This document shows, piece by piece, positions 16,740-32,369 of a stretch of DNA of 45,390 nt. How positions within the stretch are numbered: the stretch's first letter is position 1; the number at the start of each line of letters is the position of its first letter. The translations under genes and the position numbers were made by a program. Source of the DNA: Abditibacteriaceae bacterium (GTDB taxonomy: Bacteria > Armatimonadota > Abditibacteriia > Abditibacteriales > Abditibacteriaceae); the NCBI GenBank assembly GCA_031425655.1, contig JANPJS010000026.1, forward strand, positions 1 through 45,390, in the 5' to 3' direction. The notes beneath the pieces are model-generated. The model made no database searches, had not been told where the DNA came from, and saw nothing but the letters and a program-made list of their open reading frames with translations.

Positions 16740-18005
16740 ATGTCCGATAATGGAAACGCCGCGTTGAACGGTGCGGCGACGGAAAATGCAATTCGTAACG
16801 TGATTATCATCGGCAGCGGGCCGTCGGGCTACACCGCCGCGCTGTATACGGCCCGCGCCAACTTGTCGCCGCTGCTCATCGCGGGCAGCACCGATCAGGT
16901 CACATCGCGCATCAAGGGCGGGCAGCTCATGTATACCAGCGACATCGAAAACTTCCCCGGCGCCATCGAAGACCCCAACGCCGGCGTGGACGATTTGAAA
17001 GGCCTGAGCGGCCCCGATTTGATGATGCGCATGGAAATGCAGGCGCTGCACTTTGGCGCCGAGATGCTTCAGGAATTCGTGACCGAAGTGGATTTATGCT
17101 CCGATCCCGGCGGGCTTTACACGGTGAAAACCGAAGAAGGCAAAGAATTCAAAACGCGCGCCCTGATTATCTCGACCGGCGCCTCGTCGCGGCGCCTGGG
17201 CATTGCCGCCGAAGAGCAATTTTTCGGCACCAGTGTTTCGACCTGCGCGACTTGCGACGGCGCGCAGTTTTCGCGTATGAAAGCCGTCGTTGCGGTCGTC
17301 GGCGGCGGCGACAGCGCGATGGAAGAAGCCAGTTATTTAGCGCGCTTGTCGGGCATTCCGAAGGTGTATATTGTCCATCGCCGCGATGAATTTCGCGCCT
17401 CGAAAATTATGCTCAAACGGGCGCAGGACAATCCGAAAATCGAATTTCTATTGCATAAAGCGGTTTCGGATATTGTAGGCAAGCCGCATCCTTTGGCCGC
17501 GACCAACAAGTTTTTCGCCGACAAAGAAGTGATGGCCGCCGCCGTTCTCACCGACACCCAAACCGGCGAAACCAGCGAATTGCCGCTCGACGGTCTGTTT
17601 GTGGCTATCGGCCACGTTCCGAACACCGATTTGTTCAAAGGCCAGCTTAAAATGGACGAAACCGGCTATCTGGAACACGACCGGCGGATGCGCGCCATCC
17701 CGTCGCCCACTTGCGTGTCGCCCAAAATGCAAAGTCTGGAAAAAGTGCCGGGCGTTTTCGTGGCCGGCGATGTGGCCGATCATGTTTATCGCCAGGCGAT
17801 CACGGCGGCGGGCATGGGCTGCATGGCGGCGATTGAAGCCGAGCGTTATTTAGCCGAAAAAATGGCCGAAGCCGAAGGCCTGGAGCCGGGCGCCGTCAGC
17901 CTGACACCCGAAGCCATCGCGCAAAGCCATTGGAGCAGCGAACGCGACAACGGCGAGGCGCCGGTCATTGAACGCGTCGCCGAAGCCGCGCACGAAACGA
18001 AATAA
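16740..18005 (+). CDS. trxB: Thioredoxin-disulfide reductase
   Basis: IIGSGPSGYTAA, GGQL, ENFPG, redox CATCDG, VGGGDSAMEEA, HRRDEFRAS, AGDVADHVYRQAITAAG. SD AAGGAA upstream. Confidence 0.95.
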   Translation: MSDNGNAALNGAATENAIRNVIIIGSGPSGYTAALYTARANLSPLLIAGSTDQVTSRIKGGQLMYTSDIENFPGAIEDPNAGVDDLKGLSGPDLMMRMEMQALHFGAEMLQEFVTEVDLCSDPGGLYTVKTEEGKEFKTRALIISTGASSRRLGIAAEEQFFGTSVSTCATCDGAQFSRMKAVVAVVGGGDSAMEEASYLARLSGIPKVYIVHRRDEFRASKIMLKRAQDNPKIEFLLHKAVSDIVGKPHPLAATNKFFADKEVMAAAVLTDTQTGETSELPLDGLFVAIGHVPNTDLFKGQLKMDETGYLEHDRRMRAIPSPTCVSPKMQSLEKVPGVFVAGDVADHVYRQAITAAGMGCMAAIEAERYLAEKMAEAEGLEPGAVSLTPEAIAQSHWSSERDNGEAPVIERVAEAAHETK

Positions 18006-18008
18006 TGG

Positions 18009-18110
18009 TCTCTCGCAAAGACGCCAAGTCGCAAAGGACAAAGAAGAAGAGGACTGCTAACTACCGAATTTTCTTACTTCCTCTTTGCGACTTGGCGTCT
18101 TTGCGAGAGA
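18009..18110. repeat. REP-like palindrome with perfect 28-bp arms (TCTCTCGCAAAGACGCCAAGTCGCAAAG)
   Basis: 18009-18036 is the exact reverse complement of 18083-18110. Confidence 0.93.
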
Positions 18111-18126
18111 TAAACAAGGAGCCGAA

Positions 18127-19371
18127 GTGCCAGAAGAAAAAATGGTAGACGTTGAGATTCACCCGGAGCAAATCGAGGACGCGGCAGCGCACGATGCGAT
18201 GGTGAATTTGGGCGATGCGCGCGTGCAATTGACCGACGACCCGAACTCCGTTTCTCCTTTGCACGCCGAAAGCGTCGAAACGCCAGTGACTGACGATGGC
18301 GTGCCCAAAGACGATTTTCCGGTTCCGTATCCGCACGAAAACGAGCTTTTCGACTGCACTATCATCGGCGGCGGGCCGACGGGCCTTTTTGCCGCGTTTT
18401 ACGCCGGTTTGCGCGAAATGAGCGTGAAAATCGTGGATTCTTTAGGCGAACTCGGCGGACAGGTCACGGCGCTTTATCCCGAAAAATACATCTTCGACGT
18501 GGCTGGTTTTCCGCAAATCTTCGGCAAAGATTTGGTCGCGGCGTGCGTCGAACAAGGTCTGCAATTCGGCCCGACGGTGTGTTTGGGTGAGAAAATCGAG
18601 ACTTTGGCGCGCGAAGACGACGGCACTTTTACGCTGCATTCGTCGCGCGGCGCGCATCGCACCAAAACCATCATTATCGCGGGCGGCGTGGGCGCTTTCG
18701 CGCCGCGCAAACTGGATTCTCTGGCCGAACTGGACGCGCTCGAAGGCACGAGCTTGTTTTATTTCGTGAAAAGTATCGAGCAGTTTCGGGGCAAAAATAT
18801 TCTTATCGTGGGCGGCGGCGATAGCGCGCTGGATTGGGCATTAAATCTTGAACCGCTGGCTAATCACATTACCCTTGTGCATCGCCGCGACAAATGGCGC
18901 GCTCACGAAGATTCGGTCAACAAATTGATGCGTTCGTCCGTTGATGTGCGCGTATTTCACGAAATCCGCAGCGTGCAACAGCAAAACGGGCAGTTGCAGG
19001 GCGTGACGATTTATCACAACAAAACGCAGGAAGAAACCGAGTTACATCTCGATGCGATTATTTTGAATTTGGGATTCGTGGCGAACATCGGCCCGATTCG
19101 AGAATGGGGCTTGGAAATCGAAAGCGGCGGCGTGGCGGTTGATCCCGGCACGATGGCGACCAGTATTCCCGGCATCTTCGCGGCGGGCGACATCGCGCGC
19201 TTCAAAGGCAAGCTAAACCTCATTGCGACCGGCTTTGGCGAAGCCGCCACTTCTGCCAACTATTGCAAAAACCACATTGACCCGCACAGCCGCATTTTTC
19301 CCGGCCATAGCTCCGAAAAGTCCGACGAAGCCAGAGCGCACGAAGCGCAAGCGGTGGCCGGCGCGGTGTAA
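18127..19371 (+). CDS. TrxR-type ferredoxin--NADP+ reductase (YumC-like) with acidic N-terminal extension
   Basis: IIGGGPTGLFAAFYAGLR, LGGQVTALYPEKYIFDVAGFP, GGGDSALDWA, HRRDKWRAH, KLNLIATGFGEA, PGHSS; no CxxC. GTG at 18127 follows AAGGAG. Confidence 0.9.
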   Translation: MPEEKMVDVEIHPEQIEDAAAHDAMVNLGDARVQLTDDPNSVSPLHAESVETPVTDDGVPKDDFPVPYPHENELFDCTIIGGGPTGLFAAFYAGLREMSVKIVDSLGELGGQVTALYPEKYIFDVAGFPQIFGKDLVAACVEQGLQFGPTVCLGEKIETLAREDDGTFTLHSSRGAHRTKTIIIAGGVGAFAPRKLDSLAELDALEGTSLFYFVKSIEQFRGKNILIVGGGDSALDWALNLEPLANHITLVHRRDKWRAHEDSVNKLMRSSVDVRVFHEIRSVQQQNGQLQGVTIYHNKTQEETELHLDAIILNLGFVANIGPIREWGLEIESGGVAVDPGTMATSIPGIFAAGDIARFKGKLNLIATGFGEAATSANYCKNHIDPHSRIFPGHSSEKSDEARAHEAQAVAGAV

Positions 19372-21710: not shown

Positions 21711-22931
21711 ATGCGATTAACAGGCATGGGCAAACTTGTCATCTTCCTTTTGGCGCTGGGACTGGGCTTTGGCGCCTTCAATTTTTTGCGTCAATCGAAA
21801 GCTCCGGGCGGTGCGGGCAACGGCGGTTTTCCGACGGTCAATTTTCCCGGCTCGTCAACGCCTTCCAGCAATAATTCCCCCGAAGGCTCCGGCGGCGAAA
21901 ATTCGGGCGCGGGTGGCGTGGAAATCGTGCTGCTGACCAGCGCTTCCAAAAAAGGCTGGGTCGAAGAAGAAATTGACAAATTTAACGCGAAATACAGCGG
22001 TCAATATCAGATTCGCACGACGTTCGCCGAAACGCGCGAAGCCATGCATTCGATTCTTAACGGCTCGAAAAAGCCGGTTTTGTGGAGTCCGAGTAACACG
22101 ATCTGGGTGGCGCGTTTGGATGAAGTCTGGATGCAGCGCAACAGTCGTCACATCGTGGATATGAACGATAGCGGTGTCTTTCGCAGCTATTTTCGCACGC
22201 CTCTGGTGTTTCTGACCACCAGCGCCAAAGCCGGCTTTTTGAAATCGCAATTGAGCAGCGCCAACGGTTGGCAGAACTTGCGAAAACTGTGTTCCGGGCA
22301 GCAAAAAGCGCCGTGGGGCAAGTTTCGTTTTGCTTGCGCTGATCCGCTATCGGCCAACAGCGGCCTGATGACGCTGGGCGCGATGCTCTTCGATTATGGC
22401 CAGCAAAGCGGCATGAGCCAGAGCTTTGAAACTTTGGCGGCCAGCGGCGGATTCGGTGGTTATTTGCAGGGCATCAAAAAAGGAATTGTCTTCGACAGCG
22501 ATGCCAAAGCTGGCTCATCGGCGCTTTTCAAGGCGTTTCTCAGCGATCCGGGCCGCTACGATGTGATTACCGCTTATGAAGCCAATGCGCTGGAAGCCGC
22601 GCCGACGCATCGCAGCCTCGCGGTGATTTATCCGCGTCCGACCACGGTTTCCGAACACGCCATCGCGCTTTTGCAGGCTGATTGGGTTAGTGCGCAGCAA
22701 GCGGCGGGCGCGCGGGAATTCATGCGCTTTTTGGGCAGCGAAGAATCGCTGCGCGACGGCTTAAAATATCATTTTCGTCCGGTGCGCGCCTCGCAAACCA
22801 CGACGATCAATCGAGAAATCGCCAATTCCAGCGGTCAGGGTTTTCAGCAGGATTACGCCGCCGCCGAACTGCCGCCTTATAAGGCGCTAAACGTGGCTAA
22901 TAACCAGTGGCGTCTCATCATCGGCGGCTAA
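21711..22931 (+). CDS. Membrane-anchored extracellular solute-binding protein (vWA-associated SBP type); no cognate permease in window
   Basis: N-terminal TM helix, Gly/Ser linker, then PVLWSPS, RTPLV, FACADPLSANSG, YEANA, VIYPRPT, HFRP, consistent with a type II periplasmic-binding fold. Confidence 0.75.
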   Translation: MRLTGMGKLVIFLLALGLGFGAFNFLRQSKAPGGAGNGGFPTVNFPGSSTPSSNNSPEGSGGENSGAGGVEIVLLTSASKKGWVEEEIDKFNAKYSGQYQIRTTFAETREAMHSILNGSKKPVLWSPSNTIWVARLDEVWMQRNSRHIVDMNDSGVFRSYFRTPLVFLTTSAKAGFLKSQLSSANGWQNLRKLCSGQQKAPWGKFRFACADPLSANSGLMTLGAMLFDYGQQSGMSQSFETLAASGGFGGYLQGIKKGIVFDSDAKAGSSALFKAFLSDPGRYDVITAYEANALEAAPTHRSLAVIYPRPTTVSEHAIALLQADWVSAQQAAGAREFMRFLGSEESLRDGLKYHFRPVRASQTTTINREIANSSGQGFQQDYAAAELPPYKALNVANNQWRLIIGG

Positions 22932-22984: not shown

Positions 22985-24640
22985 ATGAAAGATTCGCGTC
23001 GTCTCGAAAATGAGGCCGGCATTTCCAAATTACCCTCACTTGACACCGAACTGCTGGCAGTCGCCGTCAATAGCGCGGCGGTGGGCGTGGCGATTACCGA
23101 TGCGCGCCTGCCCGACAACCCGGTTATTTACATCAACACCGCTTTCACGCGCATGACGGGCTATGAAACCGAGGACATAATTGGCCTGAATTGTCGTTTT
23201 CTTCAAGGCGCCGAAACCGATCCGGCGGCGGTAAATCGCATTCGCGGCGCCATTGCTACGCGGGAACGATTCACGCAGATTCTTCTGAATTACTCCAAGG
23301 CGGGCCGTGCTTTTTGGAACGAACTGACTATCGCGCCGGTTTTCGATGCCGAAGGCGTGGCAACGCATTTTATCGGCTTCCAAATGGATGTGACGGCGCG
23401 CATCGAAGCTGAAGCGCGGGCGAGGTCTGCGCTGGTCGAAACTCAAAAAGCTCGCGCCGAAGCCGAACGAGCCAACGCCGCGAAAAGCGAATTTCTTTCG
23501 CGCATGAGCCACGAGTTGCGCACGCCGCTCAACAGCGTGCTGGGATTCTCGCAACTGCTGGAAATGGACGACTTGGAAGAACAGCAGTTGGAACAAGTCG
23601 CTTATATTCTCACCGCCGGGCGCCATCTTTTGGCCTTGATTGACGAAGTTCTCGATTTGGCGCGCGTCGAGGCCGGGCGGCTGGTTTTAACTTCCGAAGC
23701 CGTGCCGATTCACGAAATCGTAGATGAAACATTATCCATCGTGAAGCCTTTGGCGTGGCCGCGCAACATTAGTCTCTCTGCCGAAGAAATTCCCGCCGCC
23801 GCTATCGTTTGGGCCGACCGCCAACGCTTGCAGCAGGTTTTGCTGAACCTCGTTTCCAACGCGATCAAATACAATCGCAGCGACGGCACGGTTGTGGTGC
23901 GCTGCCACGAAGATAATAGTGGCGCTGCGCCGTGCTGGCGTCTCGAAATTTCGGATACCGGGGCGGGCGTTCCTGAAGACAAGCGCGCCAAGCTGTTTCA
24001 GCCCTTCGAGCGTTTGGGCGCCGATAAATCCGAAGTCGAAGGCACCGGCTTGGGCTTGGCGGTCTCGAAGCGCATGATGGAAGCGATGGGCGGCGAAATT
24101 GGCCTCGAACCGCACGAAATCGGAGTCGGCAGCACGTTTTGGGTGAATCTGCCGGCCTTGACGGATGAAAAAGAGGCCCATTCGCACGAAATCGCCGCCG
24201 ATTCCATGCGAAAGGCCGCTTCGACACCTCAGCCGACGCTGCGCAAAGTGCTTTACATCGAAGACAATTCCGCCAATTTTCATTTAGTGAAATCGGCTCT
24301 GGAACGCATTCCCGGCCTGACTTTGCTATCGGCTGAAAAAGCCATGCCCGGACTGCAAATGGCGCGCGACGAGCAGCCGCAACTGATTTTGCTCGACTTG
24401 GATTTACCCGATTTGAGCGGGGAAGAAGCGCTGGTGCAGTTGCAAGCCGATGAGCGAACTGCCGGCATTCCCATTTTCGTGGTCAGCGCCGATGCCACGG
24501 CGCTGACTATCGAGCGTCTGCGCCGGGCCGGTGTGCGCGATTATTTCACGAAACCGCTTGATGTGCGCCCGTTTATGGCCGCAGTGAGCGAGGTTTTGGG
24601 CTTGGGCGGCGAGGCATCAAACAAACGGACTTTTGAGTAG
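22985..24640 (+). CDS. LOV(PAS)-HisKA-HATPase-REC hybrid sensor histidine kinase
   Basis: LOV signature GLNCRFLQG with DNPVIYIN, LLNY, FWN, FIGFQ. H-box FLSRMSHELRTPLN, N-box NLVSNAIKYN, G boxes DTGAG and GTGLGL. REC domain IEDN...LLDLDLPD...SAD...KP. Confidence 0.93.
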   Translation: MKDSRRLENEAGISKLPSLDTELLAVAVNSAAVGVAITDARLPDNPVIYINTAFTRMTGYETEDIIGLNCRFLQGAETDPAAVNRIRGAIATRERFTQILLNYSKAGRAFWNELTIAPVFDAEGVATHFIGFQMDVTARIEAEARARSALVETQKARAEAERANAAKSEFLSRMSHELRTPLNSVLGFSQLLEMDDLEEQQLEQVAYILTAGRHLLALIDEVLDLARVEAGRLVLTSEAVPIHEIVDETLSIVKPLAWPRNISLSAEEIPAAAIVWADRQRLQQVLLNLVSNAIKYNRSDGTVVVRCHEDNSGAAPCWRLEISDTGAGVPEDKRAKLFQPFERLGADKSEVEGTGLGLAVSKRMMEAMGGEIGLEPHEIGVGSTFWVNLPALTDEKEAHSHEIAADSMRKAASTPQPTLRKVLYIEDNSANFHLVKSALERIPGLTLLSAEKAMPGLQMARDEQPQLILLDLDLPDLSGEEALVQLQADERTAGIPIFVVSADATALTIERLRRAGVRDYFTKPLDVRPFMAAVSEVLGLGGEASNKRTFE

Positions 24641-24688: not shown

Positions 24689-25675
24689 ATGACCGTGCGC
24701 AATCGCTACGCAGAAGCGTTCAAAGAAGAATTCAATATTATAGGTTTGGCTGGTGCCGTTGCCCTTGCGGCGGCAACCTTGAACCCGCTGCTGATTTTGC
24801 CGGCGTTCGTGCTCGAAGCCGCCTATCTGATATTCGTTCCCGATTCGAGCTGGTATTCCAAACGCCTTTCCGCGCGCCACGACGCCGACATCGAAGCGCA
24901 GCGCGCCCGCATCAAAGCACAGATTTTTCCGACCTTGCGTCCGGCGCTGCAACAACGCTTCGAGCGCCTCGAAGAAGTGCGCCGCCAAATCGGCACTATC
25001 GCGTTAGACGAAAAAACGTGGTTTCACGAAGTGCTGCGAAAACTCGATTTTCTGCTGGATAAATTCCTGCAATTCGCCGGCAAGGAAGTGCAGTTTCGCG
25101 CTTATTTGCAAACGCTTTTAGCCGAAGCGCGCGGTGAACCCGATCCGATTGCGAACGCCGCGCAAATGCAAAAACCGCCGCGTTCCGGCCCGTGGCTCGA
25201 TGAAGCCTTCGCTAATGCGCCGCGCCGTGGCCGCAATTCAATGTCTACTCGCACGGCGCAAGGCCCGGCGGCACCACGCAAAACGCCCATCGCGCGGGAA
25301 GAAGCGGCGGACAAATGGGTGCAGGAAACCGTGGCCGAGGTGCAGAAATACTACGACCGCGATTTGCAGAATTTAAGCGACTTATTGCGCGACGAATCCG
25401 ATGAAGGCACGCGCGCCGTGCTGGAAAAGCGCGTCGAGGTGCTGAACCGGCGGCGCGATTTCATCGGCAAAATCGGACGCATTTTGCTCAATCTCACACA
25501 CCAGTTGGAATTGCTGGAAGACACGTTCGGACTTATCAGCGACGAAATTCGCGCCCGTCCGCCCGAACAAGTGTTGGCCGACATCGAAGACGTGGTAACG
25601 CAGACCAACACCATGACCGAAGTGCTGGAAGAAATGGCGCCTTACGAGCAATCGCTGGCGCGGCTAATGAATTGA
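24689..25675 (+). CDS. Hypothetical protein: N-terminal hydrophobic hairpin plus long helical/coiled-coil domain
   Basis: 328 aa; residues ~17-50 hydrophobic, remainder charged and helical. First gene of the PspA/AAA cluster. Confidence 0.8.
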   Translation: MTVRNRYAEAFKEEFNIIGLAGAVALAAATLNPLLILPAFVLEAAYLIFVPDSSWYSKRLSARHDADIEAQRARIKAQIFPTLRPALQQRFERLEEVRRQIGTIALDEKTWFHEVLRKLDFLLDKFLQFAGKEVQFRAYLQTLLAEARGEPDPIANAAQMQKPPRSGPWLDEAFANAPRRGRNSMSTRTAQGPAAPRKTPIAREEAADKWVQETVAEVQKYYDRDLQNLSDLLRDESDEGTRAVLEKRVEVLNRRRDFIGKIGRILLNLTHQLELLEDTFGLISDEIRARPPEQVLADIEDVVTQTNTMTEVLEEMAPYEQSLARLMN

Positions 25676-25744
25676 GAATTGAGAATGCAGAATGAAGAAA
25701 TACGATTCGCACTTTCTAAATTCTTCATTCTACATTCTTAATTC
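25669..25744. repeat. 7-mer tandem-repeat palindrome (GAATTGA-type x4, then TAAATTC/TTCATTC-type x4)
   Basis: GAATTGA GAATTGA GAATGCA GAATGAA GAAA, spacer, TTTC TAAATTC TTCATTC TACATTC TTAATTC. Overlaps the upstream stop codon. Confidence 0.85.
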
Positions 25745-25758
25745 CCGAAGGAACTGCC

Positions 25759-26622
25759 ATGAGTTTGCAAAATATAATGCGCAAAGCCGCCGGGCTTTTG
25801 GTGGAAATTCCGCCCGAAGACTCGTCTGCCGCGTCGGAAAATTCGGGCGCTTCGTCGGCGGGCGAAAAAGGGGCGCGGCCTGCGCCAGACATTGACGAAT
25901 TGCTCGCCGTCGTGCGCGGCCCTAAAGCGGCGTCATCCGGCGGCACTTCGTCGGCGCCGGCCAAGACAGGCGCGGCTTCGACTGCAACGGCGGCGCAATT
26001 GGCGCAAGCAGGCACCGGCCCGAACCTCGATCAGATTAAAAACGCGGCGGCGGGCGCAGTGAATCCCGGCGGGTTCGTGCAAGGCGCGCCGGCGCAAGGC
26101 GGCGGGCCAATTGTCGGCAGCGACGGCAAGTTGAAAGTTTCCGTCGTTTACGATGCTGCCGGTGTGCCGCCCTCGCCGTTTTCCGCTGAGCAGGCGCTGG
26201 AACTGATTCATGCCATGCCCGCCGATTTGCCGCTCGCGGTGCGCCGCCAAACCGTGAAAGCCACGCTGGTCGCCATTGGCCAAACCATAGGGGCCACGCC
26301 GCAAACCATCGTCGCCGATGCCACGCGCAAAGCCGCCGCGCTCGAAGCGTATCTCAATGCCTACGGCAAAAAAAGCGAAGAGTTCGTCGGCAAGATCGAA
26401 GGCGAAATCAAAACGCTCGAAGCGCAAATGGCCGAAAAGCGCAAAGCCATCGAAGTCGCAAAACTGCGCGTGGACGACTTGGCCAAGTTTTGCGACCGCG
26501 AAGCCGAGCGTTTGGACGAGGTTTTAGAATTTTTCAGTCTCGATGTAGGATCATCCAAATACGCGGCGGATGCGCCGCCGGTCTCAGCTAATCCAGCCGG
26601 CCCTGATCCGGGGCAAAAGTAA
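25759..26622 (+). CDS. Hypothetical protein: amphipathic N-terminal helix, low-complexity linker, C-terminal coiled coil
   Basis: SD AAGGAA. MSLQNIMRKAAGLLV N-helix, Ala/Gly/Ser/Pro linker, heptad-rich C-terminus (KIEGEIKTLEAQMAEKRKAIE). Confidence 0.8.
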   Translation: MSLQNIMRKAAGLLVEIPPEDSSAASENSGASSAGEKGARPAPDIDELLAVVRGPKAASSGGTSSAPAKTGAASTATAAQLAQAGTGPNLDQIKNAAAGAVNPGGFVQGAPAQGGGPIVGSDGKLKVSVVYDAAGVPPSPFSAEQALELIHAMPADLPLAVRRQTVKATLVAIGQTIGATPQTIVADATRKAAALEAYLNAYGKKSEEFVGKIEGEIKTLEAQMAEKRKAIEVAKLRVDDLAKFCDREAERLDEVLEFFSLDVGSSKYAADAPPVSANPAGPDPGQK

Positions 26623-26643
26623 AAAGTCGTTCAAGGAGTCATC

Positions 26644-27414
26644 ATGTTTAAACGCATCTCGAATCTCATTAAGGGATTCCTCGGTTTGTTCGTGTCGGGC
26701 ATGGAGCGTCAAAATCCGCGCGCCCTTCTCGAAGTCGAAAAAGAAAATTTGCGCGCCCAGATTGCCCGCTACAACCAGGGTTTGGCCTCGCACGCCGCGC
26801 TGTGCGAGCGTTTGATGTCGCAGGTGAAAAAGCAGGAAGCCGAAGAGCGCGACGTGCGCGCCAAAACCACGGCGCATTTGCGCGCCGGAAACCGCGAAAT
26901 GGCCGCTTCGTTGGCTCTGCGTCTGCAAAGATTGACCAGTGAACTGACGGAAAACCGCAAGCAATTGGAAGGTGCCGAAGGCACCTACAAAGATTTGGTT
27001 AAAGCGCGCGACGTGACCGTTGACGCAGCAAAATCGAAGATCGAAGCGTTGAAATACACCATCGGCGACTTGGAAATCAAAAAAGCCACGGCGGAAATGA
27101 CCGAAATGGCGTCCGGCATGATATCCAGTATCGGCGGCAGCGGCGATACGCTTAATCGCCTTGAAGAAATGGTCGGCGAAGAGCGCGACCAAGCCGCAGG
27201 CCGCGCCCGCGTGGCCCGCGACAGCCTGAACGTGCATGAATTCGAGATGAAAGAAGCCGAGCAGGACGCGCTTGCCGATCAAGCTTTGGCCGACTTCGCC
27301 GCCAAAGAAGGCATCGCCCTTGATCCGCGCCCGGTCGCCGGCGGCATTTCCGCCGACGATCCTATCGCCGCTGACGCCGCCAAAACCATGGGGCCGATTT
27401 CAGAAATTAATTGA
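26644..27414 (+). CDS. PspA/IM30 (Vipp1, ESCRT-III-like) family protein
   Basis: Amphipathic N-helix MFKRISNLIKGFLGLF, E.QNP.ALLE hinge, long helical hairpin, LNRLEEMV...AAGRARVA C-terminal segment. SD AAGGAG. Confidence 0.85.
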   Translation: MFKRISNLIKGFLGLFVSGMERQNPRALLEVEKENLRAQIARYNQGLASHAALCERLMSQVKKQEAEERDVRAKTTAHLRAGNREMAASLALRLQRLTSELTENRKQLEGAEGTYKDLVKARDVTVDAAKSKIEALKYTIGDLEIKKATAEMTEMASGMISSIGGSGDTLNRLEEMVGEERDQAAGRARVARDSLNVHEFEMKEAEQDALADQALADFAAKEGIALDPRPVAGGISADDPIAADAAKTMGPISEIN

Positions 27415-27483
27415 GAGTTTTGAGTTTTAAGTTTTGAGTTATCGGATTGAAACTCAAAACTCAAAACTCAAAACTCAAAACTC
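27415..27483. repeat. 7-mer tandem-repeat palindrome (GAGTTTT x~4, then AAAACTC x4-5)
   Basis: GAGTTTT GAGTTTT AAGTTTT GAGTT, ATCGGATTGA, AACTC (AAAACTC)x4. Fills the PspA-AAA intergenic gap. Confidence 0.92.
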
Positions 27484-27486
27484 TTT

Positions 27487-29181
27487 ATGCTGACTCCGCC
27501 ATCGCAAATCGTCCCGACGACCGTGCTGCCCGATTGGGCGAGCGATTTGGTTACGCTTTACGAAAGCGTGGCGGCGAATCAGTTCGTGCTTTACGGCAAC
27601 GTGCATGACCGCATGGTTTTGCCGCTCGGCAAAGGCGAATTAGGCGGATTGACGGATTTTCTGCTGCGCGTTTTGATGCCGCGCTTCGACGTGATTTTGT
27701 CCTACGATTTGGGCAACGGCATTCGCATCGAAAAGGGCGGCGAGATTTTCACGCAATGGCCTGCTTTCAAAGAAAACCAGCAGTTGCCGAAAACGCCGCG
27801 TGCCGCCATCGAAACTCTCACGCATTATTTTCGCTACGCGGCGAATTTGGGCCGATTAGGGCGGGGCAAGAAAACGCAGGTTGGATGTTTCATCAAAGCG
27901 GCGCATTTGGTGGCTCCGGCCTCGCCCGGCTCGCTGAATTACGACTTGAACGCCCTTGCGCTGCTGATGCGCGATTGGGCCAACGATTCGCTGCTGATTG
28001 AACACGATCTGGCTACTTTTCTCATCGCCGATAACCTCAACGATTTGCATCCGCTTTTGGTCACGAATCCGCGCGCCGCGCTGCTCAAAGTGCCGCTCCC
28101 GCCGCCCGAAGAATTGACGCGCGCTTTTTCGCTATTGGCGCCGGCTTTTCCCGTCGCGCTCTCGAATTACATCGGCGATTTAAACCGTCCGGCGCAGCAG
28201 TTGGCGGGCGCGTCGCTGGGTTCGGTGGAAACCATGCTCAAAACGCGCGAGCATAAACGCGAACCTTTGACCGATGCCGATTTAGTCGCGCTGAAAAAGC
28301 AGCTCATCGAAAAAGAGTGCAACGGACTGATTGAATTCATCGAATCGAAGCGCACGTTAGACGACCTTTACGGGCAGGAAAAAATCAAGCTCTGGCTGCG
28401 GCAGGACATCACGTTGTGGCAGCAAGGCGAAGTTCAAGCGATGCCGATGGGCTATTTATTGTGCGGCCCGGTCGGAACGGGCAAGACCTTCATGGTCGAG
28501 TGTTTGGCGGGCGAGGCCGGCGTTCCCGTCGTGAAAATGAAGAACTTCCGCGACAAATGGGTTGGCAGCACCGAAGGCAATTTAGAGAAGATTTTTCGGC
28601 TTTTGCAAGCGTTGGGCCGCTGCTACGTTTTCATTGACGAAGCCGATCAAGCGTTGGGCAAGCGCGATGCTGGTTCGGGCGATTCGGGCGTGTCGGGCCG
28701 CATTTATTCGATGATGGCCGAAGAGATGAGCAATCCGCGCAATCGCGGCAAAATCATCTGGGTTTTGGCGTCGAGCCGGCCCGATTTAATTGAGGTAGAT
28801 TTAAAGCGTCCGGGCCGCGTGGACGTGAAAATTCCGCTTTTCCCGACCACGACCAAAGAAGAAGGATTCCGCTTGATTCAAGGTTTGTGCAAGCGGCGCG
28901 GCATGGAAATTCCCGATGACGCTTTTGCTGAATTGTCGCCGCAGATTCCGCATTTGCTGACGCCCGGCGCCGCCGAAGCGCTTGCGGTCAAGGTTTATCG
29001 TGTGTCGCACGTCGAAAAACAAAGCGCGTTGGAAGCGTTGCGCGATAGCCTCGAAGATTATCAAAATCCTGTGCCGTCCGAGGTGCTGGAATTTCAAATT
29101 CAATTAGCCGTGCGCGAGGCCAGCGACCTCGAATTTGTTCCGGCTTCGCTGCGCGGTGTGCCTTCGGCGTCGCGCGTTTGA
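27487..29181 (+). CDS. Classical-clade AAA+ ATPase with a degenerate N-terminal AAA-like domain
   Basis: Walker A GPVGTGKT, pore loop KWVGSTE, Walker B VFIDEAD, ASSRPD, Arg finger LKRPGRVD. N-half begins FVLYGNVHD and lacks an intact P-loop. Confidence 0.9.
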   Translation: MLTPPSQIVPTTVLPDWASDLVTLYESVAANQFVLYGNVHDRMVLPLGKGELGGLTDFLLRVLMPRFDVILSYDLGNGIRIEKGGEIFTQWPAFKENQQLPKTPRAAIETLTHYFRYAANLGRLGRGKKTQVGCFIKAAHLVAPASPGSLNYDLNALALLMRDWANDSLLIEHDLATFLIADNLNDLHPLLVTNPRAALLKVPLPPPEELTRAFSLLAPAFPVALSNYIGDLNRPAQQLAGASLGSVETMLKTREHKREPLTDADLVALKKQLIEKECNGLIEFIESKRTLDDLYGQEKIKLWLRQDITLWQQGEVQAMPMGYLLCGPVGTGKTFMVECLAGEAGVPVVKMKNFRDKWVGSTEGNLEKIFRLLQALGRCYVFIDEADQALGKRDAGSGDSGVSGRIYSMMAEEMSNPRNRGKIIWVLASSRPDLIEVDLKRPGRVDVKIPLFPTTTKEEGFRLIQGLCKRRGMEIPDDAFAELSPQIPHLLTPGAAEALAVKVYRVSHVEKQSALEALRDSLEDYQNPVPSEVLEFQIQLAVREASDLEFVPASLRGVPSASRV

Positions 29182-29279: not shown

Positions 29280-32200
29280 ATGGCTAATCCAAGAGAGCTT
29301 CCTCCCGGTTTTCGTCTGCGCCAAACCTTAACTGGCCACGGCGATTCTATTTCACAAATAACGTGGTCGGCGGACGGCAAAGCCCTCGCCTCCAGTTCGG
29401 CGGATTTAACGGCGCGCACCTGGGATATTAAAACCGGTGCGCCGCTGCACGTTATGCGCGCCGTGGAAGCCGGCGTTTCGTGCGTGGCGTGGTCGCCCGA
29501 CGGCAAAATGCTCGTCACCGGGCAGGACAACGGCGGCATCAAACAATGGGACGCCGAAGGCCATTTGCTGCTGGCGTTCCGCGAGCATAACGCGATGGTT
29601 TTTCGCGTGGCGTGGTCGCCGACCGGCGATTTCTTCGCTTCCGCTTCCGCCGATAACACCATTCGTCTCTGGGATTCCGACAGCGCCCGCATGACGCGAA
29701 TGCTGCGGATGCCGTCGGGTCAGGCTTTGGACGTGGCATGGTCGCGCGACGGAAAAATGCTGGCGGCGGCCTCTTCCGAGGGCACGATTCGCGTTTGGGA
29801 TGCCGCCGGAGATCGCTTATTGCGCTCGGTCGCTTCGGGCAGTGACGCCGTTCTCGGTATCGCATGGGCGCCGGGAAATCGCCTTTTGGCGGCGGCCTCG
29901 GCAGATCGCATGGTGCGCCTGTGGGATCCGGAAACCGGGCAATTGCGCCATATGCTGCAAGGCGATGTCGAGCCGATTACCAGCCTCTCGTTTTCGCAGA
30001 ATGGCCGCATTTTGGCCGGTCGCACGCTGAACGGCGCCTTGCGCTTGTGGCGCACCGACACTTGGGAAACCTTGCCGGGCTTCCCCGAAACCGGGACTGC
30101 GAGCTTGTTTTCCGTCGGCGTGGCGTTCTCGCATCAGGACGACGTTTTGGCGTTTGTGGCCGACGATGGCCGTATTATCGAGTTGTGGGACGTGGACATC
30201 GAAAAGCTGCGCGCTTCGGCGGGCAGCATCAAAACGGTGCATTACACCAACGCCAAAGTCGTGCTGGTCGGCGATAGCGGCGTCGGCAAATCCGGCTTAG
30301 GTTTGGTGCTCACCGGGCATGGTTTTACACCAACCGAATCCACGCACGGGCGCTACGTTTGGCGCTTTGAAAACGAGCAAGTTGAAATGCAGGACGGTCG
30401 CCGCGAAAAGCGCGAAACCCTGCTCTGGGATTTGGCCGGCCAACCGGGTTATCGGCTCATTCATCAACTGCATTTGAACGAGATTGCGGTCGCGCTTCTG
30501 GTATTTGATGTGCGCTCCGAAAGCGACCCGTTTTCCGGCGTGCGCCACTGGGATCGCGCGCTGCGCCAAGCACAAAACGCGGCGGGCATAGACGCGCTGC
30601 CTTTGAAAAAATTCCTCGTCGCGGCGCGCTGTGATCGCGGCAGTGTCGGCGTCAGCCGCGAGCGTCTTGAAGCGTTTTTGGCGCAAAATGACTTCGACGG
30701 CTACTTTGAAACCAGCGCCAAAGAAGGCTGGGGCGTTGCCGAATTGAAGCGCGCCATGTTGGCCGCGATTGACTGGGACAACCTGCCTAAAGTTTCTTCG
30801 ACCGAGCTTTTTCAACGCATCAAAGACTTTTTATTGGTGGAAAAGCAAGGCGGGCGTCTGCTCACGACCGAAGACGATTTATTCATGGCGTTTCTGCGCT
30901 CCGGGCAGGCGCCGATGCATACCGACGACCTGATAGATCAATTTGAAACCTGCATCACTTTGGTCGAATCGCAGGGCTTGATTCGGCGCCTCAGCTTCGG
31001 CAACATGGTGCTTTTGCAGCCCGAACGCATTGACGCTTATGCTTCAGCTCTGGTCAATGCCGTCAAGAATGAGCCGGACGGCACCGGCACCATTCTCGAA
31101 GACTGGGTTTACGCCGGCAAGTTTCCGATGTCGAAAGAGGAACGGCTGCCCAACGTAGAGCAGGAGCGCCTGCTGCTCATCGCCATGATGGAAGACCTGC
31201 TGCGTCACGAAGTCGCCTCGCGCGAGTCAACCGCCGACGGAATGCTCTTAGTGTTTCCGTCGCAGTCTACGCGCGAATATCCCGATTTGCGCGATCCGTC
31301 CGGCAAAAGCGTGACTTTCACCTTCGAGGGGCCGATTGCCAATGTTTACGCCACGATGTGCGTGCGTATTTCGCACAGCGGCCTTTTCGAGCGGCAGGGA
31401 ATGTGGAAAAACGCCGCGACCTACAAAGCCGGCGACAGCGGCATTTGTGGCATGGCGATGCAGGAATTGGAAGAAGGCAAGGCCGAGCTTTCGCTGTTCT
31501 TCGATGAAAATGCCGGCGACGAATCGCGGATGCAGTTCGAGGAATTCGTTTCGGCGCATTTGCAGCGGCGGGCTTTGCCCAACAGCATTGTGCGCCGCCG
31601 CGTTTTTGCTTGCTTGTCTTGCGGCACGCCGTTAACCGATATGCAGGTGCGGCGTCGTCGGGAACGCGGCTTCGACTGGATCGAATGCAGCGTTTGCGGT
31701 GCGAATGTGCCTCTCGGCGACAAGGACGCGCCGGCAGTTTCACCGCTGCGGCCCACAGCCGTCTTCCAGATGGATCGCTCCGCCGATGCCATCCGCGACT
31801 TTGAGGCCGGTTTGGTTTCGGCGGCAGGCGAAGTTCGCACGCAGAGCTTCAAAACCTGGGCCGGAGGCCGGCACACGACGTTGGCCATCGTTTTCACCGA
31901 CATCGTCGGCTCGACGACCATTGCCAATCAGATCGGCAACGAAGGTTTCAATCAAGTGCTGAGGGGCCATTACAAAGTTGGTCGCCAGCACGTTGAAGCG
32001 CAGGGCGGCTATCTTATTAAAACCATCGGCGATTCGTTAATGGCGGCTTTTTACACGGTTTCGGATGCCTTAGCCGCCACCTTAGCAATTTACGAGCAGC
32101 CCGGTGATGAGCGCCTTAACGTGCGGGCGGGAGTCCACGTCGGCCCGGTTCTCATCGAAGATGAAGACGCTTTCGGCACGATGGTAAACTTCGCATCGCG

Positions 32201-32369
32201 CGTGGTTGATTCCACCAAATCCGCCGAAGTGCGCCTGTCTAACGCCGCTAAAGACCAACTCGAACGCGAAGAATCTCTCGATGTTTCGGCATTGGAATGG
32301 ACGGCGCATCCTCATTGTGAAATTCGCGGTTTCGACGGCGATTACACGCTGTGGACGGTGAATACGTAA
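29280..32369 (+). CDS. WD40-Roc(GTPase)-COR-Zn ribbon-class III adenylate/guanylate cyclase (Roco-like protein)
   Basis: About 7 WD40 repeats (GH...WS.DG...LAS.S.D.T.R.WD). G1 GDSGVGKS, G2 TESTHG, G3 LWDLAGQ, G4-like ARCD, G5 ETSAK. CLSC...CSVC. Cyclase motifs FTDIVGST, KTIGD, RAGVHVG, DAFGTMVNFASR. COR is inferred from position and length. Confidence 0.88.
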   Translation: MANPRELPPGFRLRQTLTGHGDSISQITWSADGKALASSSADLTARTWDIKTGAPLHVMRAVEAGVSCVAWSPDGKMLVTGQDNGGIKQWDAEGHLLLAFREHNAMVFRVAWSPTGDFFASASADNTIRLWDSDSARMTRMLRMPSGQALDVAWSRDGKMLAAASSEGTIRVWDAAGDRLLRSVASGSDAVLGIAWAPGNRLLAAASADRMVRLWDPETGQLRHMLQGDVEPITSLSFSQNGRILAGRTLNGALRLWRTDTWETLPGFPETGTASLFSVGVAFSHQDDVLAFVADDGRIIELWDVDIEKLRASAGSIKTVHYTNAKVVLVGDSGVGKSGLGLVLTGHGFTPTESTHGRYVWRFENEQVEMQDGRREKRETLLWDLAGQPGYRLIHQLHLNEIAVALLVFDVRSESDPFSGVRHWDRALRQAQNAAGIDALPLKKFLVAARCDRGSVGVSRERLEAFLAQNDFDGYFETSAKEGWGVAELKRAMLAAIDWDNLPKVSSTELFQRIKDFLLVEKQGGRLLTTEDDLFMAFLRSGQAPMHTDDLIDQFETCITLVESQGLIRRLSFGNMVLLQPERIDAYASALVNAVKNEPDGTGTILEDWVYAGKFPMSKEERLPNVEQERLLLIAMMEDLLRHEVASRESTADGMLLVFPSQSTREYPDLRDPSGKSVTFTFEGPIANVYATMCVRISHSGLFERQGMWKNAATYKAGDSGICGMAMQELEEGKAELSLFFDENAGDESRMQFEEFVSAHLQRRALPNSIVRRRVFACLSCGTPLTDMQVRRRRERGFDWIECSVCGANVPLGDKDAPAVSPLRPTAVFQMDRSADAIRDFEAGLVSAAGEVRTQSFKTWAGGRHTTLAIVFTDIVGSTTIANQIGNEGFNQVLRGHYKVGRQHVEAQGGYLIKTIGDSLMAAFYTVSDALAATLAIYEQPGDERLNVRAGVHVGPVLIEDEDAFGTMVNFASRVVDSTKSAEVRLSNAAKDQLEREESLDVSALEWTAHPHCEIRGFDGDYTLWTVNT

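Follow-up and report, generated by a model that had tools for sequence, protein, structure and literature searches.

The window analysed in this work is a stretch of 45,390 nucleotides from an Abditibacteriaceae bacterium (assembly GCA_031425655.1, contig JANPJS010000026.1, positions 1 to 45,390 of the forward strand), and the system studied in it is a cluster of four genes encoding a membrane hairpin protein, a coiled-coil protein, a PspA/IM30 protein and a tandem AAA+ ATPase. The four open reading frames (ORFs) were confirmed on the + strand, co-oriented and with intergenic gaps of 83, 21 and 72 bp, as the first-pass annotation of this DNA had described them (gaps of 21-83 bp). The nearest relatives of the locus were found in Abditibacteriaceae, and comparison with relatives showed two modules, not one four-gene machine: PspA with the ATPase, and genes 1 and 2 with a solute-binding protein (SBP) or an OmpA-tethered ATP-binding cassette (ABC) transporter. 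The genes are located as follows:

24689-25675, + strand: gene 1, 328 aa
25759-26622, + strand: gene 2, 287 aa
26644-27414, + strand: gene 3, PspA/IM30, 256 aa
27487-29181, + strand: gene 4, tandem AAA+ ATPase, 564 aa

Gene 3 matched the PspA/IM30 family PF04012 with 40.5 bits, against a cut-off of 33.9, and it was the only match to this family in the genome (97% complete). The profile of its family matched Vipp1 structures over positions 1-233 (E 2.8e-15), and an amphipathic helix 0 was observed at residues 1-18, with a moment of 0.66 and a net charge of +3. Judged by these matches, gene 3 is a PspA/IM30 protein of the bacterial ESCRT-III superfamily, as previously annotated, and from its family it would be expected to polymerise and to remodel membranes. 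The usual PspA partners had been reported as absent, and no Pfam match to PspF, PspB, PspC or the Lia proteins was obtained among the nine proteins scanned around the locus.

In gene 4, the KWVG and RPGR motifs noted before both fall within an AAA domain (PF00004, residues 323-449 of the ATPase). A degenerate second AAA module in the N-terminal half had been overlooked, and the protein can be divided as follows:

about residues 14-282 of the ATPase: module 1, degenerate, without the Walker A lysine and without the Walker B DE
module 2, an intact classical AAA module: Walker A K333, KWVG pore loop W358, Walker B D384-E385, RPGR R441/R444

The motor residues of module 2 were invariant or nearly so in 57 aligned rows, and both Walker sites were replaced in module 1. 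A profile built from 43 N-terminal halves matched p97/VAT among the structure sequences (E 2.3e-4), and the direct hhalign comparison of one half of the ATPase against the other was not significant. The N-terminal half is best regarded as a second, dead AAA module. When the ATPase was scored against NCBIfam models, CDC48 gave 70.6 bits, FtsH 61.6, PAN 55.7 and CdvC 30.9, the CDC48 score being far below the cut-off of 802 for that family. No match to an MIT domain was obtained at E<=0.5, and Vps4 was not among the best 60 of the 271 structure sequences that matched the ATPase. Because the MIT domain was not found, the CdvC score lies far under that of CDC48 and no Vps4 appears in the best 60 structures, the ATPase is, by sequence, not Vps4; the kinship with Vps4 proposed earlier was not borne out, and the degenerate N-terminal module also speaks against it.

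The closest solved structures to both modules by sequence were Cdc48/p97/VAT, whose tandem AAA layout the ATPase shares. It differs from these proteins in having no N-terminal substrate domain, for which there is no space since module 1 begins within the first 30 residues, and in a module 1 without both Walker motifs. With Vps4/CdvC of eukaryotes and archaea it has in common a classical-clade AAA motor, an aromatic pore loop and the pairing with a polymer of the ESCRT-III superfamily, but it has no MIT domain, carries two AAA modules and has an RPGR region of the Cdc48/FtsH/PAN type. In Ravi et al., the corresponding protein is labelled 'inactive classical AAA + classical AAA'.

The neighbourhoods of the ATPase were analysed in the best 80 of 141 confirmed relatives, which belong to about eight phyla, including Armatimonadota/Abditibacteriota, Acidobacteriota, Verrucomicrobiota, Planctomycetota, Sumerlaeota and Elusimicrobiota. 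PspA was encoded in 60 of these 80 loci. When only the 68 loci with more than 1 kb upstream were considered, PspA was found in 57, the gene-1 family in 37, the SBP in 18, SBP-vWA in 16, a binding protein-OmpA fusion in 15 and gene 2 in only 3. Two layouts recurred, one with SBP-vWA, SBP, PspA, a transmembrane (TM) protein and the ATPase, and the other with binding protein-OmpA, permease, ABC ATPase, TM protein, PspA and ATPase, the latter being the published gene set.

Co-inheritance was then followed in a survey of 301 genomes of the phylum. Close orthologues were 28 of the 94 PspA matches (E<1e-80) and 28 of the 38 ATPase matches (E<1e-70); both were present together in 27 of 29 genomes, also where the two genes are unlinked, and each occurred alone in one genome. 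Gene 1 matched 67 genomes (62 after the removal of five weak rows) and gene 2 also matched 67, with full-length copies in 51 (E<1e-60), all 51 of which had gene 1. The complete set of four genes was present in 23 genomes, of which 21 belong to the window's own family. A broader ATPase profile matched 75 of the 301 genomes, and with this profile 24 of the 51 genomes with genes 1 and 2 still had no ATPase match; the ten such genomes that were tested all encode a generic PspA elsewhere, unlinked. Since the surveyed genomes are related, these counts describe patterns and are not independent tests. 

Most PspA proteins that accompany the ATPase end in a short motif, which in this genome is the following:

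27382-27396, + strand: PspA C-terminal tail motif K-T-M-G-P, residues 247-251, after a variable linker

The motif, in its general form [KR]-x-M, comes after the last conserved PspA helix and the variable linker, and M249 was conserved in 98% of 53 aligned PspA rows. Within the last 20 residues, [KR]-x-M was found in 81 of 85 distinct close PspA orthologues. It was also found, within the last 45 residues, in 23 of 25 members of a distant PspA branch (26-30% identity for PspA and about 29% for the N-terminal half of the ATPase), where the ATPase adjoins PspA in 17 of 25 loci and is encoded in all 25 genomes. Among 24 generic PspAs, none had the tail motif and none of their genomes had the ATPase. 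This generic set consisted of 14 sequences from a control fetch and ten further ones; for the controls, 40 weaker PspA matches were fetched, three were dropped for open ends, one was a close orthologue and three earlier loci were added, and this fetch supplied the 25 members of the distant branch as well as the 14 generic sequences. The background frequency of the motif was about 7% of long ORFs. Genome G010 (93% complete) encodes a close PspA without the methionine and gave no ATPase match. The tail motif thus co-occurs with the ATPase across two very distant PspA branches, and K-T-M-G-P is a candidate ATPase-recognition motif. An analogy is offered by the MIM, a short conserved motif in the flexible C-terminal tail of ESCRT-III polymer subunits.

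A complex of ATPase residues 10-560 with PspA residues 190-256 was predicted together with three controls. The score was 0.56 versus 0.01 for the best control, the runs agreed in at least 87% of the contacts and the pLDDT of the partner was at least 68. The mark set for the complex score was reached by 116 of 157 solved pairs and by 2 of 215 mismatched pairs; because, at scores of 0.60 or under, it was reached by 18 of the 157 solved pairs and by both mismatches, the prediction hints only weakly that the PspA tail binds the ATPase.

Such binding would suit an adaptor equally as well as a substrate. In a different explanation, the ATPase is a Cdc48-like membrane-protein extractor or assembly chaperone, with the transporter, the product of gene 1 or damaged membrane proteins as its clients, and PspA acts on it through the tail as an adaptor or inhibitor (as PspA does with PspF in E. 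coli) and not as its substrate. The Cdc48/p97/VAT structures nearest to the ATPase fit this proposal, as do the 11 of 68 ATPase loci without PspA within 8 kb and some ATPases of the distant branch that adjoin flotillin/NfeD or unrelated genes. The distribution of the ATPase fits it poorly, since the ATPase tracks PspA (27 of 29 genomes shared) far better than it tracks gene 1 (26/64) or gene 2 (24/55) and is missing from nearly half of the genomes with genes 1 and 2, as given above; we consider the extractor explanation unlikely. At one locus of the distant branch (L165:4436-9031), the tandem ATPase lies 3' of NfeD-like and flotillin genes and not of PspA.

Gene 1 contains a hydrophobic helical hairpin at about residues 15-49 and was modelled with a pLDDT of 82. 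The model consists of this two-helix membrane hairpin and a putative cytoplasmic helical bundle, its long C-terminal hairpin leading into two short helices, and points to a membrane anchor; the earlier description as a membrane-anchored helical protein agrees with this, and the family recurs beside PspA. In hhalign comparisons, gene 1 matched the TM/coiled-coil family of the PspA-ATPase operons in other phyla (92.5%, E 4.9e-7). Since it is homologous to the TM protein in that operon position, it would fill the 'SIG+TM+Snf7' slot of Ravi et al., an assignment made by position and homology and not by comparison with the example sequence of that family. The Snf7 label was not confirmed: hhalign against the PspA family gave 3%, and the gene-1 family profile against structure sequences returned coiled-coil noise with no Snf7. 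The model did align with the CHMP4B hairpin (Z 7.2, root-mean-square deviation (rmsd) 3.0, 76 residues aligned), at rank 38 among generic helical matches. The best VIA match of the model was a designed helical protein (Z 12.3, rmsd 9.2, 170 aligned).

The gene-1 family is large, with 2605 clusters at 50% identity (E<=0.001). Its nearest named cluster by language-model features was PF25587 (0.87, with the family on 40% of the members), which is a lead only; the hidden Markov model of PF25587 matched neither gene 1 nor 11 divergent relatives. The mycobacterial ClgR-PspA-PspM(Rv2743c) system is similar in that PspA stands beside a two-TM helical partner, but it differs in the missing PF25587 match to gene 1 and in having no linked ATPase in the table of Ravi et al. 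Gene-1-like proteins adjoin generic PspA in 6 of 14 loci. In L277, L282, L285, L286, L289 and L294, a distant gene-1-like membrane protein is encoded next to a generic PspA and the ATPase is missing. In view of these loci, the gene-1 family may represent a PspA anchor that is widespread but still unnamed. Two gene-1-family paralogues per cluster were observed in L260 (1337-3023), L190, L191, L194 and L207.

Gene 2 begins with an amphipathic helix (hydrophobic moment 0.45-0.50), followed by a disordered linker, a small helical domain, an 80-residue coiled-coil helix and a conserved C-terminal LEFFSLD segment, in agreement with its earlier description as an amphipathic-helix/coiled-coil protein. 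Its monomer model was a single 80-residue helix (pTM 0.57), with a plain coiled coil as the best VIA match (Z 6.5, rmsd 1.6, 55 aligned), and hhalign against the PspA family gave 13%. The constant company of gene 1 in the survey leads us to regard gene 2 as its lineage-specific partner. In L170, L171, L173 and L174, shorter gene-2 paralogues lie between an upstream SBP gene and a downstream TIM-barrel gene, and gene 1, PspA and the ATPase are absent; this arrangement suggests a direct link between the SBP and gene 2.

No Pfam family was assigned to gene 1 or gene 2, and Pfam scans of 103, 104, 26, 34 and 11 relatives gave only scattered coiled-coil matches. Foldseek searches with both models returned 0 matches at E<=0.001, and in the fold searches no ESCRT-III, XpaC or TelA chain stood out, a result that excludes nothing. 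Neither gene matched PF10112 or TelA in Pfam, and profiles of genes 1 and 2 against one XpaC and its downstream TelA-like neighbour, a single target, gave 0.3% and 0.2%. Among the genomes searched, few XpaC homologues were obtained (0 of 5, and 1 of 61 over the cut-off), and the literature search on XpaC/TelA operons returned no study of this system.

These comparisons bear on the version first put forward for this locus: four genes forming a self-contained repair/scission machine, with gene 1, gene 2 or both supplying further subunits of ESCRT-III type for a co-polymer with PspA, which a Vps4-like ATPase would remodel. The label of divergent Snf7 given to the gene-1 family by Ravi et al., the long C-terminal hairpin with two short helices in the gene-1 model, the amphipathic N-terminal helix of gene 2 and the adjacency of the four genes in several genomes of Abditibacteriaceae would fit such a co-polymer. 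Against this, the profile comparisons with PspA remained at the 3% and 13% given above, the gene-2 model is one long helix and not a hairpin, gene 2 occurs in only 3 of the 80 ATPase loci, and the ATPase has no MIT domain and favours CDC48 over CdvC. We regard a co-polymer as very improbable; of that version, the conserved PspA-ATPase pair and the membrane-anchored partner recurring beside PspA were supported, and the self-contained machine, the kinship with Vps4 and gene 2 as a second ESCRT-III subunit were not supported.

The second module was apparent when the neighbourhoods of genes 1 and 2 were analysed. In 41 gene-1 loci (40 chosen for long contigs, and L001), gene 2 was present in 30, the binding protein-OmpA fusion in 25, the permease in 24, the SBP in 14, PspA in 14 and the ATPase in 9. 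In 80 of 87 gene-2 metagenome loci, gene 1 was upstream in all 47 with room and the binding protein-OmpA fusion in 28 of 30; downstream, PspA was found in 8 of 34 and the ATPase in 5 of 34. Therefore, the four genes are not self-contained, since genes 1 and 2 travel with binding proteins or an ABC transporter and 24 of the 51 genomes have no ATPase of this family. In this genome, the transporter orthologues lie on other contigs, the OmpA fusion on C227 and the permease and ABC ATPase on C276, and none is at this locus. The following gene, overlooked before, is a detached upstream member of the system:

21711-22931, + strand: membrane-anchored solute-binding protein (SBP_bac_11; PF13531, E 1.6e-13)

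This SBP has a hydrophobic segment at its N-terminus, its homologues were found in 18 of the 80 ATPase loci and 14 of the 41 gene-1 loci, and a homologue stands immediately 5' of gene 1 in L001, L113, L119, L135, L138 and L139. It is part of the same conserved neighbourhood.

The same counts could be read as a mainly solute-sensing or uptake unit, formed by the binding protein, the OmpA tether, the permease and the ABC ATPase with genes 1 and 2 as accessories, while PspA and the ATPase would be a separate stress pair that entered the operon in some lineages for the sake of co-regulation, the two modules being physically unlinked. The contrast between the upstream binding protein-OmpA fusion and the infrequent downstream PspA in the gene-2 loci, the predominance of the OmpA fusion and permease over PspA and the ATPase in the gene-1 loci, and the near confinement of the complete four-gene set to one family all suit this. 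Against it speak the occurrence of the gene-1 family next to PspA, not only in several phyla whose binding proteins differ (37 of 68 ATPase loci) but also in the distant branch and with generic PspA; the ten ATPase-less genomes that all still hold an unlinked PspA; and this genome, where genes 1 and 2 stayed with PspA and the transporter genes moved away. A separation of this kind seems distinctly unlikely.

Other features around the cluster were also considered:

22985-24640, + strand: PAS-histidine kinase-receiver hybrid, between the SBP gene and gene 1 (Pfam domains)
29280-32369, + strand: WD40 - Roc GTPase - adenylate/guanylate cyclase fusion, 1029 aa (Pfam)
25676-25744, no strand assigned: AT-rich hairpin with 7-nt periodic arms, z -6.1
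27414-27484, no strand assigned: AT-rich hairpin with 7-nt periodic arms, z -8.3

The hybrid kinase was rejected as a cluster member: L001 has no such gene between its SBP and gene 1, and only in L003, of the same genus, does it precede gene 1; in L112, a phosphodiesterase-family gene occupies this position. The WD40-Roc-cyclase gene was likewise rejected, as it stands beside the ATPase only in the closest, same-genus relatives (3 of 80 ATPase loci, L001-L003). It is followed by a prepilin-type gene, and in L003 it is split into several ORFs. Although strong, the two intergenic hairpins were not accepted as signals specific to the operon, because the same repeat family occurs genome-wide, with 237 such periodic stretches, 89 of them of the GAGTTTT type, and 79 of the 237 with a nearby reverse-complement partner in a strict test. 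We take them to resemble short tandem heptamer repeat families. Promoter and terminator scans gave results no better than chance, and PADLOC returned only generic AAA, WD40 and cyclase matches. Two adjoining genes at 16740-19371 are, as we presume from their translations, thioredoxin-reductase-like flavoprotein genes.

The cluster is an Abditibacteriaceae-type copy of an operon type that was described from genome comparison in 2024, and a PspA-AAA neighbourhood had been mentioned in the first-pass annotation as already known from comparative genomics. The available text of Ravi et al. 2024 (PMC11237479) describes in silico a neighbourhood of PspA, 'inactive AAA + active AAA', TM-'Snf7' and a coiled-coil protein (examples AEY64321.1, OGG56892.1 and CBH24266.1), with PBPB+OmpA, permease and ABC ATPase as optional parts. 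It gives the same ESCRT/Vps4 analogy and further partners, and proposes ATP-dependent remodelling without a test. The operons are alike in PspA beside a two-module ATPase with a dead first module, in the TM helical partner and the extra coiled-coil protein, and in the binding protein and ABC transporter of the relatives; they differ in that the transporter genes here lie on other contigs and an SBP_bac_11 gene lies upstream. The gene-2 family, the division into two modules and the PspA tail motif have no mention in the available part of PMC11237479. The gene cluster itself is not new; the additions made here are the division into an effector pair and an anchor/transporter module, a binding prediction with weak support, and a PspA tail motif that accompanies the ATPase in two very distant branches.

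Taken together, we favour, with a probability of roughly 0.55, an envelope-stress system of two modules in which the ATPase grips the PspA tail and recycles PspA polymers. In the effector module, PspA would bind the inner membrane face through helix 0 and polymerise on stressed membrane, as expected from its family. The tandem AAA+ protein would form a double ring, with dead module 1 as a docking or entry ring and module 2 as the motor. It would recognise the C-terminal helix of PspA and the [KR]-x-M tail and thread the subunit through the aromatic pore loop, leading to polymer turnover, so that the job of Vps4 would be done by a Cdc48-like, non-Vps4 enzyme; the turnover of ESCRT-III by Vps4 is summarised in the available part of PMC11746142. 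The membrane hairpin of gene 1 and the coiled coil of gene 2 would make a membrane-side scaffold, gene 1 anchoring or nucleating PspA, in a role that may be likened to that of PspBC, LiaI or PspM elsewhere. This scaffold could couple a periplasmic binding protein, either the SBP at 21711 or the binding protein-OmpA fusion with its permease and ABC ATPase, to the recruitment of PspA, the binding protein supplying the signal.

Several points weigh against recycling of PspA by the ATPase. In a quick tree, PspAs with the motif formed two clades and generic PspAs a third, so that the motif counts amount to some one or two evolutionary events, preserved along a long branch, and not to dozens; the motif label that L001 carries in this tree marks a false match lying upstream of the real site. 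The motif was defined only after the alignment had been viewed. The first control count, made over 20 residues, gave 6 of 38 rows, and after it the stretch searched was extended to 45 residues; in addition, three of the distant-branch ATPases counted had contributed to the profile used for the search. The ATPase is also kept by three relatives of the same genus in which Q-G/A-L-G-P stands instead of the motif. The ATPase may have other clients, because of the loci without PspA and those beside flotillin/NfeD. A motor may not be needed, since PspA rods have an ATP-linked plasticity of their own according to the available part of PMC11746142. The literature search, with subscription journals mostly outside its coverage, found no experimental study of this system.

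A stronger form of the favoured reading would make the ATPase the bacteria's own convergent equivalent of Vps4, a Cdc48-like double-ring enzyme whose dead module replaces MIT and reads [KR]-x-M on a dedicated PspA clade and which drives ATP-dependent polymer turnover, while the hairpin protein and the coiled-coil adaptor relay a binding-protein signal that nucleates the polymer. We put this forward tentatively, as more doubtful than probable. In the available part of a 2025 review, a Vps4-like ATPase appears absent in bacteria (PMC7619361), and according to the accessible text of PMC10936438, ESCRT systems having both genes occur only in archaea and eukaryotes. If true, the stronger form would mean that bacteria, for which reviews call such an ATPase apparently absent, have convergently acquired an ESCRT-III/ATPase machine whose recognition code is defined. 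The tail motif, found here only in ATPase-linked PspAs, would offer a direct means of testing how bacteria may dismantle PspA polymers.

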